Source: a virus
Lineage: Duplodnaviria > Caudoviricetes
Reading direction: 5' to 3' (one strand)
Length of the DNA stretch: 64,000 nt
IMG/VR virus record: IMGVR_UViG_2595698649_000001
Location: 32,001-96,000 of that record
Position 1 is the first letter of the stretch; every line of letters starts with the position of its first letter. Positions 31,212 to 59,431 of this stretch are shown here, one piece after another. The position numbers were made by a program, and so were the translations under genes. The notes beneath the pieces are model-generated. The model was not told where the DNA came from. It saw only the letters and a program-made list of their open reading frames with translations, and ran no database searches.

Positions 31212-31779
31212 TGAAGAACGATTATGGGAAACTCCACTCTTTAATACTAACATTGGTGTTGACAAAGAAATATTAGATTATCTTATAAACAATAAAGATA
31301 AGATACAAGACACTAATGAAGACCCTAACGGTGCATGGGTTAGTAAAACAGACTTAGATTTTCCTCCTTTAAAAGAAACAATCAAAAGTTTTTGTCGTAG
31401 TCTATTTGCCTTAAATGTAACTGAAATTACTTTTACAAATATGTGGGCAAACATGTTAAAAAAAGGTGAGTATCATTTATTACATAGTCACAATGAGCAT
31501 ACAATGTCAGGTGCATATTACTTACAAACACCTGTAAACTCAGGACAAATATATTTCAAAGACCCAAGACCACAAACTAATTCGTGGACACAAAAATTTA
31601 TAGATAAAGGTAACATGAGATTTTATACACCTAAACCAGGTGACTTATTCATGTGGCCGAGTTTCTTAGAACATGGTACTACACCACATGGTGCAGATGA
31701 AGAAAGAATAATGTTAAGTTTTGATTTAAGATTTAACGGACCAGGATACAAATATGGACACAATGGATACAACGGCTAA
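31198..31779 (+). CDS. Putative 2OG-Fe(II) oxygenase (TIGR02466-like)
   Basis: 'WAN...HLLHSH...SGAYY...F.DPR', 'WPSFLEH', 'ERIMLSF'. Confidence 0.85.
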   Translation: MIKINEERLWETPLFNTNIGVDKEILDYLINNKDKIQDTNEDPNGAWVSKTDLDFPPLKETIKSFCRSLFALNVTEITFTNMWANMLKKGEYHLLHSHNEHTMSGAYYLQTPVNSGQIYFKDPRPQTNSWTQKFIDKGNMRFYTPKPGDLFMWPSFLEHGTTPHGADEERIMLSFDLRFNGPGYKYGHNGYNG

Positions 31780-33157
31780 AAAAATATTAGTAATGGGTGG
31801 TGGTACTGCTGGTTGGTTAACGGCACTATATCTAACTAAAACTTTTCCTCAACATCATATTACATTAATGGAAAGTAAACCTATTGGTATCTTAGGTGCA
31901 GGTGAAGGTTCAACACCACATCTAGTAGCGTTTCTGAATATGTTAGGTGTAGATTTAAACGAATTACTTAAAGAATGTAAAGGTACAATTAAACAAGGTA
32001 TCTCATTTGAAAACTGGAATGGTGACGGTGAGAAATACTTTCATCCTTTTGCAGTACAAAATAAATATAAACATTTTAGTATAGACAATTTATTTGGTTA
32101 TGATAGTTATGATTATTATTTAAAACATTTAATTCACAGAAAAATGCCTTTGAAAGAGCATACTTATGCGTCTATACAATCATATAAGAATGTTGTTGAT
32201 ACAGATAATATAGATAACTCTATACACTTTGACGCACACCTTTTAGCAGATTATCTTAAAAAAATTACAAAAGTTGATAAACATATCTATGATGAAATTA
32301 AAACTACACAACAAGACGAACATGGTAATATAACTAAAATAAATAATGTAGAATGTGATTTAGTTTTTGATTGCACAGGTTTTCGTAGAGAGTTAATTGG
32401 TAAGTTATATAAGTCAGAATGGAAAAGTTATCAGGATTGTTTACCAATTAAGAGAGCAATACCTTTCTTTTTACCACCTGAAGATAAACCTTACACACAA
32501 GCAATCGCAATGAAATATGGTTGGGTATGGAAGATACCTTTACAACATAGATGTGGTGCAGGTTATATATTTGATAGTGATTATATAACAGACGAAGAAG
32601 CATTTGCTGAAGCAAAAGAAATGTTTCCTGATATAGAATATACAAGAACAATAAAGTTTGACGCAGGTAGATTTAAACAAACATGGATAAAAAATTGTAT
32701 TGCAGTAGGTTTATCTTCTGGTTTTACAGAACCACTTGAAGCAACATCTATTTGGATGGCAACTGAACAATTAAAATTACTTGAAACATTTATTGACATT
32801 ATGTTTACAAATGATGAAGATACTAAACAAGATTATAACGAAGTTATTGCAAATAATAATGATATGGTTATGGAGTTTTTACACTATCACTATATGACTA
32901 AAAGAGACGATAGTCCTTTTTGGAAAGAGTTTAGAAATAAAAACAATTTACCTGACTTTAATGTTAAGTTATCTAAAATACAAAAAGGTAATTTAAGATG
33001 GTATCATACAACAGGTGAAAAGATTACATCAACATTTAATCTTATGTCATGGTTGCATGTAGGCGAAGGTCTAGGTCTTATCAAAGATATAAGTATTAAA
33101 GGGTATGAAAATTTAAACCCAACAGTAGAAGAATATGGCAGACACTTACCTAGGTAA
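31754..33157 (+). CDS. Flavin-dependent (tryptophan-type) halogenase
   Basis: 'GGGTAGW', 'GAGEGS', Lys in 'GTIKQGISF', 'WVWKIPL' (WxWxIP), 'GFTEPLEATS'. Confidence 0.88.
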   Translation: MDTMDTTAKKILVMGGGTAGWLTALYLTKTFPQHHITLMESKPIGILGAGEGSTPHLVAFLNMLGVDLNELLKECKGTIKQGISFENWNGDGEKYFHPFAVQNKYKHFSIDNLFGYDSYDYYLKHLIHRKMPLKEHTYASIQSYKNVVDTDNIDNSIHFDAHLLADYLKKITKVDKHIYDEIKTTQQDEHGNITKINNVECDLVFDCTGFRRELIGKLYKSEWKSYQDCLPIKRAIPFFLPPEDKPYTQAIAMKYGWVWKIPLQHRCGAGYIFDSDYITDEEAFAEAKEMFPDIEYTRTIKFDAGRFKQTWIKNCIAVGLSSGFTEPLEATSIWMATEQLKLLETFIDIMFTNDEDTKQDYNEVIANNNDMVMEFLHYHYMTKRDDSPFWKEFRNKNNLPDFNVKLSKIQKGNLRWYHTTGEKITSTFNLMSWLHVGEGLGLIKDISIKGYENLNPTVEEYGRHLPR

Positions 33158-53574: not shown

Positions 53575-54119
53575 ATGGAAAAACTAATAACTAAAATTGA
53601 AGACATAAAAGTTAATTTATGTGAAGATGATATTTTAAATTTTTTACAAATACAGAAACGCTGGCCAATACAGTATTCTACTTCACAACCTACAGTACAA
53701 ATCATAAATGAACTAGGTAATTTCTACAACGATTTTTTTGAAAATACTGTAGATGGAATATTCTTAAATTATGATAAGTGGTTATCTTTATACAACTTAG
53801 GATTTACTTCTATTATATCAAATGTTTTAGATTTATCAAAAGAACTAAGAACATTAGAGAAATTAATAATAGAAGAAATAGGTGTAAAAGTTTGTGGTAA
53901 TTTTTACTTTAGTAAACCTGGAAGAAAAGAAAGTTTTGATAAACATACCCATAGTTATGATGTTATAGTAAAACAAATATATGGCAAGTCAAAATGGATT
54001 TTAAACAACCAAGAAATAGACCTATGTCCTAATCAAGTATTATATGTACCTAAAAATACTGAACACGCTGTTATTGAAAAAACAGAAAAAAATTATCATT
54101 AACCTTAAATTTAGCATGA
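53575..54119 (+). CDS. JmjC/cupin_4-like 2OG oxygenase (apparent 1-nt frameshift at A7, 54086-54092)
   Basis: 'NFYFS....SF..HTHSYDVIVKQIYGKSKW', 'LYVPK...HAV'. Adding one A gives 'KKLSLTLNLA*', ending in an ATGA overlap with the next gene. Confidence 0.75.
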
Positions 54120-55258
54120 AGAATAAACCTATAGACCCTTTATTAGAAAAACAATGGGAGACCTTTCAACAAGAAAATCCTACACCTTACGAACATATAG
54201 ATACAAACGAACTTAAAGAGCGTTTAATTACTGAACTAGGTTATGTATCTGGTATGACAGTAGAAGAATATACATTATATCAAAAATGGTGTGAAGTTAA
54301 AAACAAGTATCCTGCTCAGACAGTAAACACTTTATTTGGCGAAGAAAGTCAATTAGTAGATTTATCAAAAGATAAACTATTATCTCATGTAAAGAACAAT
54401 ATATGGTCACCTCAGGATCCTATGGATTTTGAGAAGTTACAACCAGAACTAATCTATACAAAAGATAGTCCAGAATTACCACAATTGTGGAACGCAATAA
54501 GAACATTTGCCTCTACAATGAAAAACAATAACAATATAGGTCGTAATCTAAACTTTATAGTAAGAGATAAACCAACAAAGAAATATCTAGGTGTCATTTG
54601 TATATCAAGTGACTTTTTAGATTTAACACCTAGAGATAATTACATAGGTTGGGATAGAGTTAGAAAAACACAAAAGATGATTAATCATACGGCGATAGGT
54701 AGTACGATTGTGCCACTACAACCACTAGGTTATAATTACACAGGTGGTAAGTTACTTGCGTTGATGTGTTTATCAGATAAAGTACAAGAGACATGGAAAA
54801 AAGAATATGGCGATACAATGGTTGGTGTTACAACTACAAGTTTATATGGTAGTTTTAGTCAATATCAGAATTTGAAACACTGGAAGAAAAGAGGTCATAG
54901 TGCAGGTAGTGTATCATACGAAGCAACGAAACCTACTATTCAGATGTTAAGAAAGTGGATTATGGAAAATCACACTAGAAAATACTTTGAATGGTATAGT
55001 GCTACAAAACCTACAGGTCAACCATATAAGAGAGACCACAGAAATAGAAGTCATACATTTGCATATAGTAAACTAGGTATACCAAAAGAGTTAACAAAGT
55101 CAGACCACAGTAGAGGTATCTATTTTTCCGCTAGAAAGCGTATTAAATCATTGATTGACCAAACAAGGACAAACATGGAGACGCTTTACTATGATGACTT
55201 GATACATTTAACATGGGAAGAAACCAAAGAAAAGTATCTAAAACAGGTAGGAAGATAA
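54116..55258 (+). CDS. DUF4338/DruA-like protein
   Basis: 'GRNLNFIVRD..T.KYLGVI.I.SD...L..RD.YIGW', 'IVP.QPLGYNY.GGKLLAL', 'TTTSLYG..SQY'. Confidence 0.65.
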   Translation: MKNKPIDPLLEKQWETFQQENPTPYEHIDTNELKERLITELGYVSGMTVEEYTLYQKWCEVKNKYPAQTVNTLFGEESQLVDLSKDKLLSHVKNNIWSPQDPMDFEKLQPELIYTKDSPELPQLWNAIRTFASTMKNNNNIGRNLNFIVRDKPTKKYLGVICISSDFLDLTPRDNYIGWDRVRKTQKMINHTAIGSTIVPLQPLGYNYTGGKLLALMCLSDKVQETWKKEYGDTMVGVTTTSLYGSFSQYQNLKHWKKRGHSAGSVSYEATKPTIQMLRKWIMENHTRKYFEWYSATKPTGQPYKRDHRNRSHTFAYSKLGIPKELTKSDHSRGIYFSARKRIKSLIDQTRTNMETLYYDDLIHLTWEETKEKYLKQVGR

Positions 55259-57766: not shown

Positions 57767-57880
57767 GTGCGACATGTTGACACAGCAATTAATTTGGAAA
57801 GCGTTGAAATATAAAGGTTTTTTATTTGAAATAACGCTTGACTTTAACAATAAAGTGTGATAGGATATAGTTATATTATG
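57767..57880 (+). promoter_or_regulatory. Early promoter element, copy 2
   Basis: TTGACT(57838)-N17-TAGGAT(57861) with the same upstream blocks as copy 1. Confidence 0.7.
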
Positions 57881-59077
57881 AAAAAAAGTGAAAGGACTAC
57901 AATTATGTTAAACGAGAAACAAAAAAAGTTTGTTGACCTTGCTGTAAAAGAACTTGGTACTGATACAGTAACAAGAAAGCAAGTACAAGAACTTGAAACA
58001 AAATTTAACCTTACTGGTAACAGTTGGTTAGTAAATTCAGGAGATTACAAAGTGGGCAGAGGCGTATATAAATTACCTACTGACGGTGTTGTAAACCCTA
58101 GTAAGAATATCAAACAGAAATTGCCTAAGACTAAAGCAGTTGCTGAGACAGTTACTTTAAAAGAGACTGCTCAAAATACTGAGAGTTTAGTTCCTAATAA
58201 AGAGGCAACTTTCGTATCATTTGGTAATTACAAAGATATTAAGAATATTGTAAAATCTAAAATATTCTATCCTACATTTATTACAGGTCTTTCTGGTAAC
58301 GGTAAGACTTTAGGTGTTACTCAAGCGTGTGCTGAGTTAAAAAGAGAATTAATTAGAGTTAACATAACAGTTGAAACGGACGAAGATGATTTACTTGGTG
58401 GTTTCAGACTAGTTGACGGTGCTACAGTATGGCATGACGGTCCTGTTGTTGACGCTATGAAGCGTGGTGCTCTTCTATTGTTAGATGAGATTGACCTTGC
58501 TTCAAACAAAATTATGTGTTTGCAACCTATCTTAGAAGGTAACGGAGTGTTCCTTAAAAAGATTGGTAAATTTGTTGAACCTGCTGAAGGTTTCAACATT
58601 GTTGCTACTGCCAATACTAAAGGTAAAGGTAGTGAAGACGGAAGATTTATTGGTACTAACATACTCAATGAAGCTTTCTTAGAAAGATTTCCTGTTACTT
58701 TTGAACAAGAGTATCCTCCTGTAAAAGTAGAACAGAAAATTTTAGATAATGTTATGTCCGCTTATGCTTTAAAGGATCCTAAGTTTACTGAGAACCTTGT
58801 TAAATGGGCAGATGTTATTAGAAAAACTTTTTATGATGGCGGTGTTGATGAGATTATTGCTACTAGAAGACTAGTGCATATCATTAATGCTTTTGCTATC
58901 TTTAAGAATAAACTTAAAGCTGTTCAAGTTTGTGTAAACAGATTTGATGACGATACTAAAAACAGTTTCTTAGATTTATATTCTAAAGTTGACGCTGGTG
59001 TTAACATGGAAGATATATCTGGAAATGGGAATGATGTTGACCCAATAAACATGGAAGAGGAAACTCCAAGTGTTTAA
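57878..59077 (+). CDS. MoxR/CobS-like AAA+ ATPase (start 57878 or 57905)
   Basis: Walker A 'GLSGNGKT', 'ETDEDDLLGGF', Walker B 'LLLDEID', 'ATANTKG.GS.DGRF.GTN.LNEAFLERF'. Confidence 0.88.
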   Translation: MKKSERTTIMLNEKQKKFVDLAVKELGTDTVTRKQVQELETKFNLTGNSWLVNSGDYKVGRGVYKLPTDGVVNPSKNIKQKLPKTKAVAETVTLKETAQNTESLVPNKEATFVSFGNYKDIKNIVKSKIFYPTFITGLSGNGKTLGVTQACAELKRELIRVNITVETDEDDLLGGFRLVDGATVWHDGPVVDAMKRGALLLLDEIDLASNKIMCLQPILEGNGVFLKKIGKFVEPAEGFNIVATANTKGKGSEDGRFIGTNILNEAFLERFPVTFEQEYPPVKVEQKILDNVMSAYALKDPKFTENLVKWADVIRKTFYDGGVDEIIATRRLVHIINAFAIFKNKLKAVQVCVNRFDDDTKNSFLDLYSKVDAGVNMEDISGNGNDVDPINMEEETPSV

Positions 59078-59104: not shown

Positions 59105-59130
59105 ATCCGTGGGCAGCAATGTCCACGGAT
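59105..59130 (+). terminator. Stable GCAA-tetraloop hairpin (terminator or tRNA-processing leader)
   Basis: ATCCGTGGGCA-GCAA-TGTCCACGGAT, 9 nt before the tRNA. Confidence 0.5.
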
Positions 59131-59139
59131 TTAAAACAA

Positions 59140-59213
59140 GCGGGTGTGGTATAGAAGTATTACGCCAGTTTACCAAACTGGAAATGCAGGAGCGTTACCT
59201 GCCATCCGCTCCA
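59140..59213 (+). tRNA. tRNA-Gly-like, anticodon ACC, non-canonical D and T loops
   Basis: Acceptor GCGGGTG/CATCCGC, discriminator U, encoded CCA. Anticodon arm CCAGT-TTACCAA-ACTGG; T arm GCAGG-AGCGTTA-CCTGC. Confidence 0.8.
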
Positions 59214-59227
59214 ATAAAGGGTACATT

Positions 59228-59431
59228 ATGTCAATAACTGTTGTAGTAAAAAACAATAATGTTGAAAAAGCAATCAGACAGCTTAAGAAAAAACTTATGA
59301 GAGAAGGTGTAGTGAAAGAGTTGAAGACAAGACAATACTATGAAAAACCATCAGAAAAAAAACTCAGATTAAAAAAGGAAAACATTAAGCGTGTCCTGAA
59401 AAACAAAAAACTAAGGGAAAGGGAACAATAA
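59228..59431 (+). CDS. rpsU: Ribosomal protein bS21
   Basis: 'V.V.NNNVEKAIR.LKKK..REG...ELK.RQYYEKPSEKK.R.K.E...R'. Confidence 0.9.
   Translation: MSITVVVKNNNVEKAIRQLKKKLMREGVVKELKTRQYYEKPSEKKLRLKKENIKRVLKNKKLREREQ

Follow-up and report, generated by a model that had tools for sequence, protein, structure and literature searches.

The 64,000-nucleotide stretch of tailed-phage DNA analysed here (the window; positions 32,001 to 96,000 of IMG/VR record IMGVR_UViG_2595698649_000001) carries a glycine tRNA gene with the anticodon ACC and an altered elbow, and we consider it likely, with a probability of roughly 0.7, that this tRNA-Gly(ACC) is a functional phage elongator tRNA reading GGU by Watson-Crick pairing. 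Integrity of the gene, its conservation, the covariation of its stems, the codon statistics of the phage and the distribution of the tRNA were observed directly. ARAGORN gave a single tRNA call in the window, tRNA-Gly(acc) at 59140-59213 on the plus strand, and the sole Rfam match in the window, to RF00005, spanned 59140-59210 with 49.5 bits (gathering score 29, E 1.4e-07); no further tRNA was matched in the rest of the record (147,284 bp). The cloverleaf (Table 1) has stems of 7, 4, 5 and 5 bp, a 7-nt anticodon loop and a 4-nt variable loop, the fourth pair of the D stem being U.U in all members of the family described below. A first-pass annotation, made from the letters of the DNA, had described a cloverleaf with the glycine elements G1-C72, C2-G71, U73 and CCA, the anticodon ACC at 59172-59174, a D loop devoid of GG and a T loop AGCGTTA, and had proposed scoring with ARAGORN; all of these features could be read directly from the sequence, ARAGORN and Rfam agreed with the cloverleaf, and ARAGORN also returned the anticodon. 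The identity set of glycyl-tRNA synthetase (GlyRS) consists of G1-C72, C2-G71, G3-C70, U73, C35 and C36, and the full set is present in the window tRNA and invariant in 10 related variants (clades A1 and B, see below). The anticodon is none of the bacterial glycine anticodons GCC, UCC or CCC, and the elbow departs from the canonical one (G18-G19; T54-Psi55-C56), the D loop being AGAAGTA and the T loop AGCGTTA.

The stretch was contained in public sequencing data of 20 runs from 12 studies. Contigs of four RNA-library runs, each from a different study, showed no differences from the window within 59140-59213, three of them covering the entire gene, and base 59172 (A34), the verification of which had been recommended in the first-pass annotation, was A in all four as well as in the ACC-type relatives. 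The same contigs differed from the window in the flanks, at 59028, 59042, 59218, 59219, 59222, 59224, 59308 and further on. Being contigs, they are uninformative on transcription, on the start and end of the tRNA and on minor edited forms. As A34 is identical in the contigs of four studies and conserved in all ACC-type relatives, it is genuine, and the ACC anticodon is not a sequencing error. The view that the gene is decaying or an artefact without function could draw on its non-canonical elbow and on the fact that several relatives are missed by ARAGORN and by the default Rfam filters, but it is close to refuted by the identical sequences from the four studies, by 16 ACC variants (among the matches listed) with compensatory changes and conserved identity elements, and by retention of the tRNA in cultured and uncultured phages.

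To define the relatives, IMG/VR was scanned with the anticodon arm as a pattern in which position 34 was left free, and several variants of the window tRNA were obtained, every one of them with ACC. A second scan, using the D arm and the outer anticodon stem with the entire anticodon loop free, yielded 22 loci with 10 distinct sequences, and the loop was TTACCAA at all 22. In the alignment of 10 variants from clades A1 (that of the window) and B, 95.2% of the cells were paired and five pairs showed two-sided changes; the acceptor, anticodon and T stems were 100% paired, acceptor pairs 1-4 being constant and pairs 5-7 showing two-sided changes. None of 500 shuffles equalled the observed pairing or covariation, and shifting the 3' partners lowered pairing to 39-51%. 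Among the matches listed from at least 121 IMG/VR loci found with the scaffold pattern introduced below, ACC was present at 54 of the 54 loci of the ACC clades, which comprise 16 sequence variants. It was retained in a second ACC clade with the acceptor strand GCGGCTA or GCGGGTA and the anticodon stem GYGGG/CTCRC, and in the third (clade B) with the T loop TGCGATT. Likewise, the copy in record G007, found by Rfam and missed by ARAGORN, shares the D arm and T loop of the window, has another anticodon stem and still carries ACC. On comparative grounds the window tRNA is genuine and under selection, and A34 itself appears to be selected, since the loop is invariant at the 22 loci and ACC is kept in clades with other stems, genomic slots and T loops as well as in the cultured phage Mosig.

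In Mosig EXVC030M, a tRNA-Gly(ACC) 85% identical to that of the window (MT647606.1 7779-7852, minus strand; L444:901-974) has the T loop GGCAGTA and lies between Hsp20 and gp45, 26 nt before gp45. A 96-nt coding sequence (CDS) for a 'hypothetical protein' (Mosig_000011) is annotated over it, and the tRNA was missed by ARAGORN and by the default Rfam filters, scoring 38.0 bits with permissive ones. The cultured pelagimyophage HTVC008M is listed with 0 tRNAs by tRNAscan-SE in Table 1 of PMC7029224. The tRNA-Gly(ACC) gene thus appears to be previously unreported, given this entry and the annotation of the Mosig homologue as a CDS. Our literature search found no relevant description of a phage Gly-ACC tRNA or of a phage non-canonical elbow, and a blastn search with the window tRNA in a collection of named phages, possibly lacking the window's own record, gave no match. 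Genes of this kind escape the standard tRNA finders and are absent from published annotations, so that the phage tRNA content of marine viromes is probably under-counted. An ARAGORN call of the opposite kind, a 97-nt 'tRNA-Tyr(ata)' at 64776-64872 of record G005, had no Rfam tRNA match and is probably false.

In cellular genomes, with each of 185,579 species of bacteria and archaea represented once, the pattern of D arm plus Gly anticodon arm had no exact match. A tRNA-Gly(ACC) with a canonical elbow, separate from the window type, was found at nine other IMG/VR loci; one of these is in an array of 27 tRNAs whose glycine set consists of UCC and ACC with no GCC, and which also includes a tRNA-Arg(ACG), and in this array ACC evidently takes the place of the GGY reader. 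In another IMG/VR contig (L004:1474-1557), ARAGORN predicted an 84-nt tRNA with the anticodon ACC on a type-II-like body with a long variable arm.

Codon usage was counted from crude open reading frame (ORF) calls (162 ORFs, 44,880 codons). GGT accounted for 2204 of 3030 glycine codons (73%), with GGC at 11%, GGA at 15% and GGG at 2%, unlike the four-codon boxes of Ala, Thr, Val, Pro, Ser and Leu, in which the A-ending codon was preferred. The share of GGT was 74.7% of 1,560 glycine codons in the structural region and 70.6% of 1,470 in the rest of the genome, and it ranged from 0.64 to 0.89 in the most Gly-rich virion genes, which bears out the earlier remark that GGT dominates in these genes; across 102 genes, no correlation between glycine content and GGT share was detected (rho 0.04). 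Records carrying the ACC tRNA (G000, G003, G004 and G007) had GGT shares of 0.73-0.75 and GGC shares of 0.10-0.13, while those with a GCC tRNA (G013-G015, near copies of each other) had 0.60-0.70 and 0.16-0.19, respectively; three fragments in which no Gly tRNA was found (G005, G006 and G008) had GGT at 0.68, 0.65 and 0.53 and GGC at 0.12, 0.13 and 0.02. In these few lineages, the ACC carriers seem to lie at the extreme of the GGT bias and to use less GGC than the GCC carriers, as anticodon-codon matching predicts.

The first-pass annotation had proposed three roles, a dedicated GGU decoder, evasion of host anticodon nucleases and glycyl donation for non-ribosomal modification. The first is the best backed, by A34 at all 54 ACC-clade loci among the matches listed, the identity elements, the encoded CCA, the 73% share of GGT and the higher GGC usage of the GCC sisters, and the other two received little direct support. 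For expression, charging, the state of A34 and decoding, we infer the following course. The tRNA and the bS21 gene that follows it would probably share a transcript, from which host RNase P and 3' nucleases would release the tRNA; the host GlyRS would recognise the identity set given above and charge it, and its unmodified A34 would pair Watson-Crick with GGU, the codon for most of the phage glycines. In bacteria, the usual reader of GGU is tRNA-Gly(GCC), solely through G34.U wobble, and the same presumably applies to the host of this phage, SAR11, the most abundant group of bacteria in the ocean. The phage tRNA would add GGU decoding capacity, and some reading of GGC and GGG, for the synthesis of Gly-rich virion proteins. 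An E. coli tRNA-Gly changed to ACC was reported to be unmodified, to read GGU strongly and GGC weakly, and to compete on GGA and GGG (Boren 1993, as cited in PMC11066159), and an orthogonal tRNA(ACC) in E. coli gave 1.3% on GGU, 0.40% on GGC and 0.33% on GGG with no inosine seen, according to Table 1 and section 3.2 of PMC11066159.

Several observations weigh against decoding of GGU as the role of this tRNA. The GGT bias is strong also in fragments in which no Gly tRNA was found (0.68 in G005, 0.65 in G006), so that the tRNA does not explain the bias, which is older and wider. The contrast between ACC and GCC carriers comes from two lineages only, G013-G015 being near copies, and from crude ORF calls. 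The RNA-library contigs that cover the gene cannot show transcription. Furthermore, G18 and U55 are missing from the window elbow, an absence that PMC13443448 also describes for the staphylococcal non-proteinogenic tRNA-Gly; the pair 51:63 is A-U in nine of the 10 clade-A1/B variants and G-U in one, and PMC12256121 names G51-C63 as a strong determinant for EF-Tu in S. aureus. Finally, overexpression of Gly-tRNA(ACC) is reported to have slowed the growth of E. coli (bioRxiv 10.64898/2026.05.15.725136).

If the host TadA deaminated A34 to I34, the tRNA would read GGU, GGC and GGA, as might be suspected from the normal deamination of A34 in bacterial tRNA-Arg(ACG), from U33, A34, C35, A37 and A38, which the window loop has in common with that tRNA, and from the occurrence of a tRNA-Arg(ACG) in the canonical-elbow array of 27 tRNAs. 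We regard this as highly improbable. With C36 rather than G36 and U32 rather than C32, the loop UUACCAA departs from the tRNA-Arg(ACG) type. Two systems in which ACC tRNAs met the E. coli TadA showed no modification of them (PMC11066159, section 3.2, and Boren 1993 cited therein), and Gly-tRNA(ACC) is described as a poor substrate of TadA and ADAT (bioRxiv 10.64898/2026.05.15.725136). The RNA-library contigs read A at 59172, a weak argument as contigs may derive from DNA and drop minor variants.

The elbow was examined by a further scan of IMG/VR with the D arm and the T loop alone, GTATANNAGYATTAC-N(24-27)-GGNGCGNTNCC, which defined a scaffold with the D arm GTATA-NN-AGY-ATTAC, the T loop N-GCG-N-T-N and a 4-nt variable loop, to which the window tRNA conforms. 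At least 121 loci with at least 52 distinct tRNAs and 10 different anticodons were obtained. Among the matches listed, the anticodons were ACC (Gly, 54 loci), GGT (Thr, 22), GCC (Gly, 17), TCC (Gly, 10), GTT (Asn, 9), TTG (Gln, 3), GAC (Val, 2), TGC (Ala, 2), CTG (Gln, 1) and TGT (Thr, 1). Pairing statistics were calculated on 51 of the 52 scaffold sequences, one with a 2-nt insertion being omitted: the acceptor, anticodon and T stems were paired to 96.4%, 98.4% and 98.4%, respectively, and two-sided changes occurred in 15 of their 17 pairs. G55, C56, G57 and U59 are invariant because the search pattern fixed them, together with most of the D arm, which is accordingly invariant or nearly so in the 51 tRNAs. 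Positions 54 and 58 were left free by the pattern and covary, with A:U in 27, U:A in 16 and other combinations (G:G, U:U) in eight of the 51 variants.

When the 7-nt D loop is numbered A14 R15 N16 A18 G19 Y20 A21 (A14 G15 A16 A18 G19 U20 A21 in the window), the elbow would represent an alternative tertiary solution, in which the outer G19:C56 contact is kept, A18:G55 replaces G18:Psi55, and A54:U58 or another combination replaces T54:A58. The first-pass annotation had tied the odd elbow to a special role, a link that is not supported, as the same elbow is found in Thr, Asn, Gln, Val and Ala tRNAs and in tRNA-Gly with GCC and UCC. Since the same D arm and T loop occur in tRNAs of at least six amino-acid identities, the elbow is, as far as sequences tell, an inherited lineage scaffold of marine T4-like phage tRNAs and not the mark of a special glycine tRNA. 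That Thr, Asn, Gln, Val, Ala and Phe tRNAs use this scaffold as well is easier to reconcile with ordinary translation than with a side role peculiar to glycine. In a maximum-likelihood tree of the 51 scaffold tRNAs (68 columns), the Gly members were grouped with a Shimodaira-Hasegawa-like approximate likelihood-ratio test (SH-aLRT) support of 95; the tree was otherwise unresolved and the number of ACC origins not readable from it.

T loops of this kind were also seen beyond the exact scaffold. A tRNA-Gly(UCC) in a phage fragment with 35 tRNAs (L043, record G009) has the D loop AACAGTA, the T loop TGCGATT and a different D stem, which indicates that the G55 elbow reaches beyond the scanned D-arm pattern. 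By a rough extraction, non-TTC T loops were present in six of 21 and five of 18 tRNAs of two phage arrays amid canonical ones. In these arrays (L440 and L441, of records G016 and G017), canonical and G55-type T loops coexist, TGC or AGC standing in place of TTC in Asn, Phe, Thr, Cys, His and Gln tRNAs. The same two arrays (L440:3344-3419 and L441:1272-1347) share a predicted tRNA with an 8-nt anticodon loop, the four-base anticodon CTCT as given by ARAGORN and the T loop TGAAAAT, which could be of frameshift type or mis-called.

The existence of a GCC version also bears on the possibility that the tRNA serves as a replacement tRNA-Gly in cells where infection has set off a host tRNA nuclease or a GNAT toxin acetylating aminoacyl-tRNAs, and that the changes in its anticodon loop and elbow protect it from them. 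To our knowledge, no tRNA-Gly-directed defence has been described for SAR11, which counts against such evasion. The GCC sequence on the same scaffold means that the scaffold is not dependent on A34, the acceptor-end elements read by such toxins and by GlyRS are canonical, and a single tRNA species would be a narrow shield. The anticodon and elbow are indeed unlike those of any cellular tRNA, as the lack of pattern matches in cellular genomes illustrates, PMC10264068 describes phage tRNAs that evade host nucleases through changes in the anticodon loop, and work on GNAT toxins acting on Gly-tRNA(Gly) is cited in PMC13219725. On balance, evasion is distinctly unlikely, and decoding of GGU remains the preferred role.

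The phage was identified as a T4-like myophage by Pfam (176 crude ORFs) and PHROGs (84 ORFs), with gp23 capsid, portal, sheath and baseplate proteins, the gp45 clamp and gp44 loader, the late sigma factor gp55 and RegA. The record is complete according to CheckV, has a G+C content of 33.45%, and also encodes the curli proteins CsgG/F, many 2OG-Fe(II) oxygenases and ribosomal protein bS21. The best named matches of the bS21 protein were to Pelagibacter phages, with 61% identity to that of Mosig, whose host is HTCC1062. The hairpin after the AAA-ATPase gene (Table 1) was not equalled in stability by any of 200 shuffles, and is kept in relatives with and without the tRNA. In relatives it is followed by a T run and is terminator-like, whereas the T run is poor in the window. 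A terminator scan around the tRNA called none, and promoter and terminator scans performed no better than on shuffled sequences; the T4 late-promoter motif TATAAATA had 10 matches with 11.3 expected, and was thus not enriched, with none before the tRNA.

Table 1. Positions of the tRNA-Gly(ACC) gene, its parts and neighbouring features in the window
Feature	Position	Strand	Basis and remarks
tRNA-Gly(ACC) gene, 74 nt	59140..59213	+	ARAGORN; Rfam RF00005, 49.5 bits; covariation in relatives
Acceptor stem, 5' strand GCGGGTG	59140..59146	+	pairs with CATCCGC at 59203-59209; G1-C72, C2-G71, G3-C70 constant in every ACC variant
D arm GTAT-AGAAGTA-TTAC	59149..59163	+	three Watson-Crick pairs plus invariant U13.U22; 7-nt loop
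Anticodon arm CCAGT-TTACCAA-ACTGG	59165..59181	+	ACC at 59172-59174; A34 = 59172
T arm GCAGG-AGCGTTA-CCTGC	59186..59202	+	T loop 59191-59197 = A54 G55 C56 G57 U58 U59 A60
Discriminator U73	59210	+	sequence
Encoded CCA end	59211-59213	+	sequence
Ribosomal protein bS21 gene	59228..59431	+	Pfam PF01165, E 2e-18; starts 14 nt past the tRNA CCA
Conserved hairpin after AAA-ATPase gene, 9 nt before the tRNA	59105..59130	+	fold -18.5 kcal/mol, z -5.2
CobS-like AAA ATPase, upstream neighbour	57857..59077	+	Pfam AAA_5; phrog_249
DruA-like (PF14236) protein gene, GNAT-like core predicted	54044..55258	+	Pfam; model; 3.9 kb upstream of the tRNA

In clade A1, the tRNA follows the gene of the CobS-like ATPase and precedes that of bS21 at 15 of 15 loci, with 15-18 nt left to the bS21 match. 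In the second ACC clade it is placed between Hsp20 and the gp45 clamp gene, with gp45 downstream at 28 of 33 loci and 25-29 nt or ∼600 nt away, and in clade B it abuts a DruA-like gene at all three loci with enough flank. The single GCC scaffold sequence is found 157-158 nt after the gp44 homologue at 16 of 17 loci, and two UCC scaffold members are near Hsp20, DUF3310 and gp45. Judging from these positions, a common 5-kb module of related phages contains one scaffold tRNA-Gly, with ACC, GCC or UCC as its anticodon. In the phage Melnitz (MZ577097.1; L442:1344-1421), a canonical tRNA-Arg(TCT) is located 13 nt upstream of bS21, and hence the slot before bS21 is filled by different tRNAs in related phages; in Mosig this slot holds the hairpin only. 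Elsewhere in the window, a gene for a tryptophan-halogenase family protein (31754-33154; PF04820, E 1.8e-105) adjoins the large terminase gene. Outside the window, the same record (G000) encodes two carbamoyltransferase homologues, a CHASE2-adenylate/guanylate cyclase protein and curli CsgF/CsgG (L424:1306-2748, L430:9055-10419, L424:11972-13804 and L424:7562-8884), and more than 12 2OG-Fe(II) oxygenase paralogues are scattered across the phage genome.

The DruA-like gene leads to the last alternative, in which the charged tRNA would be kept off the ribosome and give its glycine to a phage transferase, for example the GNAT-fold DruA-like protein. Such a donor would be a parallel to the staphylococcal non-proteinogenic (NP) tRNA-Gly that feed Fem enzymes and lack G18 and U55 in the same manner (PMC13443448, PMC7826273, as far as these sources describe them); the pair 51:63 is mostly A-U, and the phage Mu protein Mom uses Gly-tRNA(Gly) for DNA modification, as reported in PMC13219725. 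The DruA-like genes of clade B directly beside the tRNA are those at L038:334-1470 and L033:340-1458. A model of the DruA-like protein built from a 17-sequence alignment (predicted local distance difference test score, pLDDT, 72.6) matched GNAT enzymes in VIA-align with Z 5.6-6.6, all below the advised Z of ∼8; the top row was Mom (8bv8_B; Z 6.6, root-mean-square deviation 2.9, 105 residues aligned), tied with SpeG, RimI and others. The protein had no sequence match in PDB, and Foldseek returned none at E <= 0.001. The model supports a GNAT-like core and nothing more specific. Against a donor role, tRNAs for Thr, Asn, Gln, Val, Ala and Phe have the same elbow, glycine donation does not call for a fixed A34, and each of the three E. 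coli isoacceptors is reported to be accepted by Mom (PMC13219725). In the window, 3.9 kb separate the DruA-like gene from the tRNA, the tRNA occupies at least three different slots among relatives, and the GNAT match stays below Z 8 without singling out Mom. No Fem, L/F-transferase, Mom-named or GNAT family was found among the 176 ORFs (Pfam) or 84 ORFs (PHROGs), with four ORFs and those under 60 aa outside the scan. Since the scaffold is shared, A34 is fixed and the genes around the tRNA vary, we regard a donor role as quite improbable.

A wider proposition can be built around an elongator tRNA on this scaffold, namely that marine T4-like phages keep a private tRNA chassis (A18-G55, with 54:58 swapped or purine-purine), used for tRNAs of at least six amino acids, that is independent of, or invisible to, host enzymes reading G18, T54 or Psi55 (TrmH, TrmA, TruB and elbow-reading defences), and that Gly-ACC, the one A34 anticodon of a four-codon box never retained by cells, evolved on it; in its bolder form, the ACC tRNA would in addition be a dedicated glycine carrier for the GNAT-fold DruA-like enzyme. 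We hold this proposition to be tentative and rather unlikely. If it were true, the 'universal absence' of tRNA-Gly(ACC) would reflect a cell-specific cost and not a chemical impossibility, and cultured phage-SAR11 pairs would offer a natural ACC/GCC/UCC series on one body. Gly-tRNA(ACC) is described as the only A-starting tRNA of a four-codon box that is universally absent from cellular tRNA sets (bioRxiv 10.64898/2026.05.15.725136). Here, cultured SAR11 phages and no fewer than 54 viral contigs are found to carry tRNA-Gly(ACC) as a natural, conserved and diversified tRNA, and the avoidance of unmodified A34 and ACC by life becomes experimentally approachable in existing phage-host cultures, with GCC and UCC controls on the same body. 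The shared elbow suggests that the near-universal G18-Psi55 and T54-A58 contacts are replaceable as a set.

Among known systems, the closest are the elongator tRNAs of T4-like phages (T4 tRNA-Gly UCC; cyanomyophages and pelagimyophages), which likewise include a single tRNA gene in the replication or late-gene region, an encoded CCA, host-type identity elements and an anticodon suiting the favoured codon; the window tRNA differs from them by ACC and by A18, G55 and A54:U58 in place of G18, Psi55 and T54:A58. The likeness to staphylococcal NP tRNA-Gly with altered D and T loops, pointed out in the first-pass annotation, is real to the extent that these are described in PMC13443448 and PMC7826273: NP1-3 have no G18-G19 doublet and no U55, with TGC or TGT in the T loop. 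The same sources describe them as cellular tRNAs with UCC and an extra anticodon-stem pair shortening the loop, which serve Fem transferases in Gram-positive cell-wall synthesis. By contrast, the window tRNA seemingly keeps G19:C56, and its elbow is shared with tRNAs of other amino acids. It lacks the NP-type combination of UCC and an extra anticodon-stem pair; U32 and A38 could pair in the minimum free energy fold, and the sequence differs. As regards the weak EF-Tu determinants of the NP-type T stem (absence of G49-U65 and G51-C63), the pair 49:65 is G-C, A-U or C-G in the 10 variants. Engineered or mutant E. coli tRNA-Gly(ACC) have the same anticodon and, as reported, an unmodified A34 reading GGU best and GGC and GGG in part (Boren 1993; PMC11066159; bioRxiv 10.64898/2026.05.15.725136), but they are laboratory constructs on a glycine or orthogonal body, whereas the window tRNA occurs in nature, where it has been conserved and has diversified. 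Mycoplasma tRNA-Thr(AGU) and yeast mitochondrial tRNA-Arg(ACG) also have A34 in a four-codon box, kept without deamination according to PMC6103715; they belong to reduced genomes, in which they are the sole or nearly sole readers of their boxes, while the window tRNA is a viral addition.

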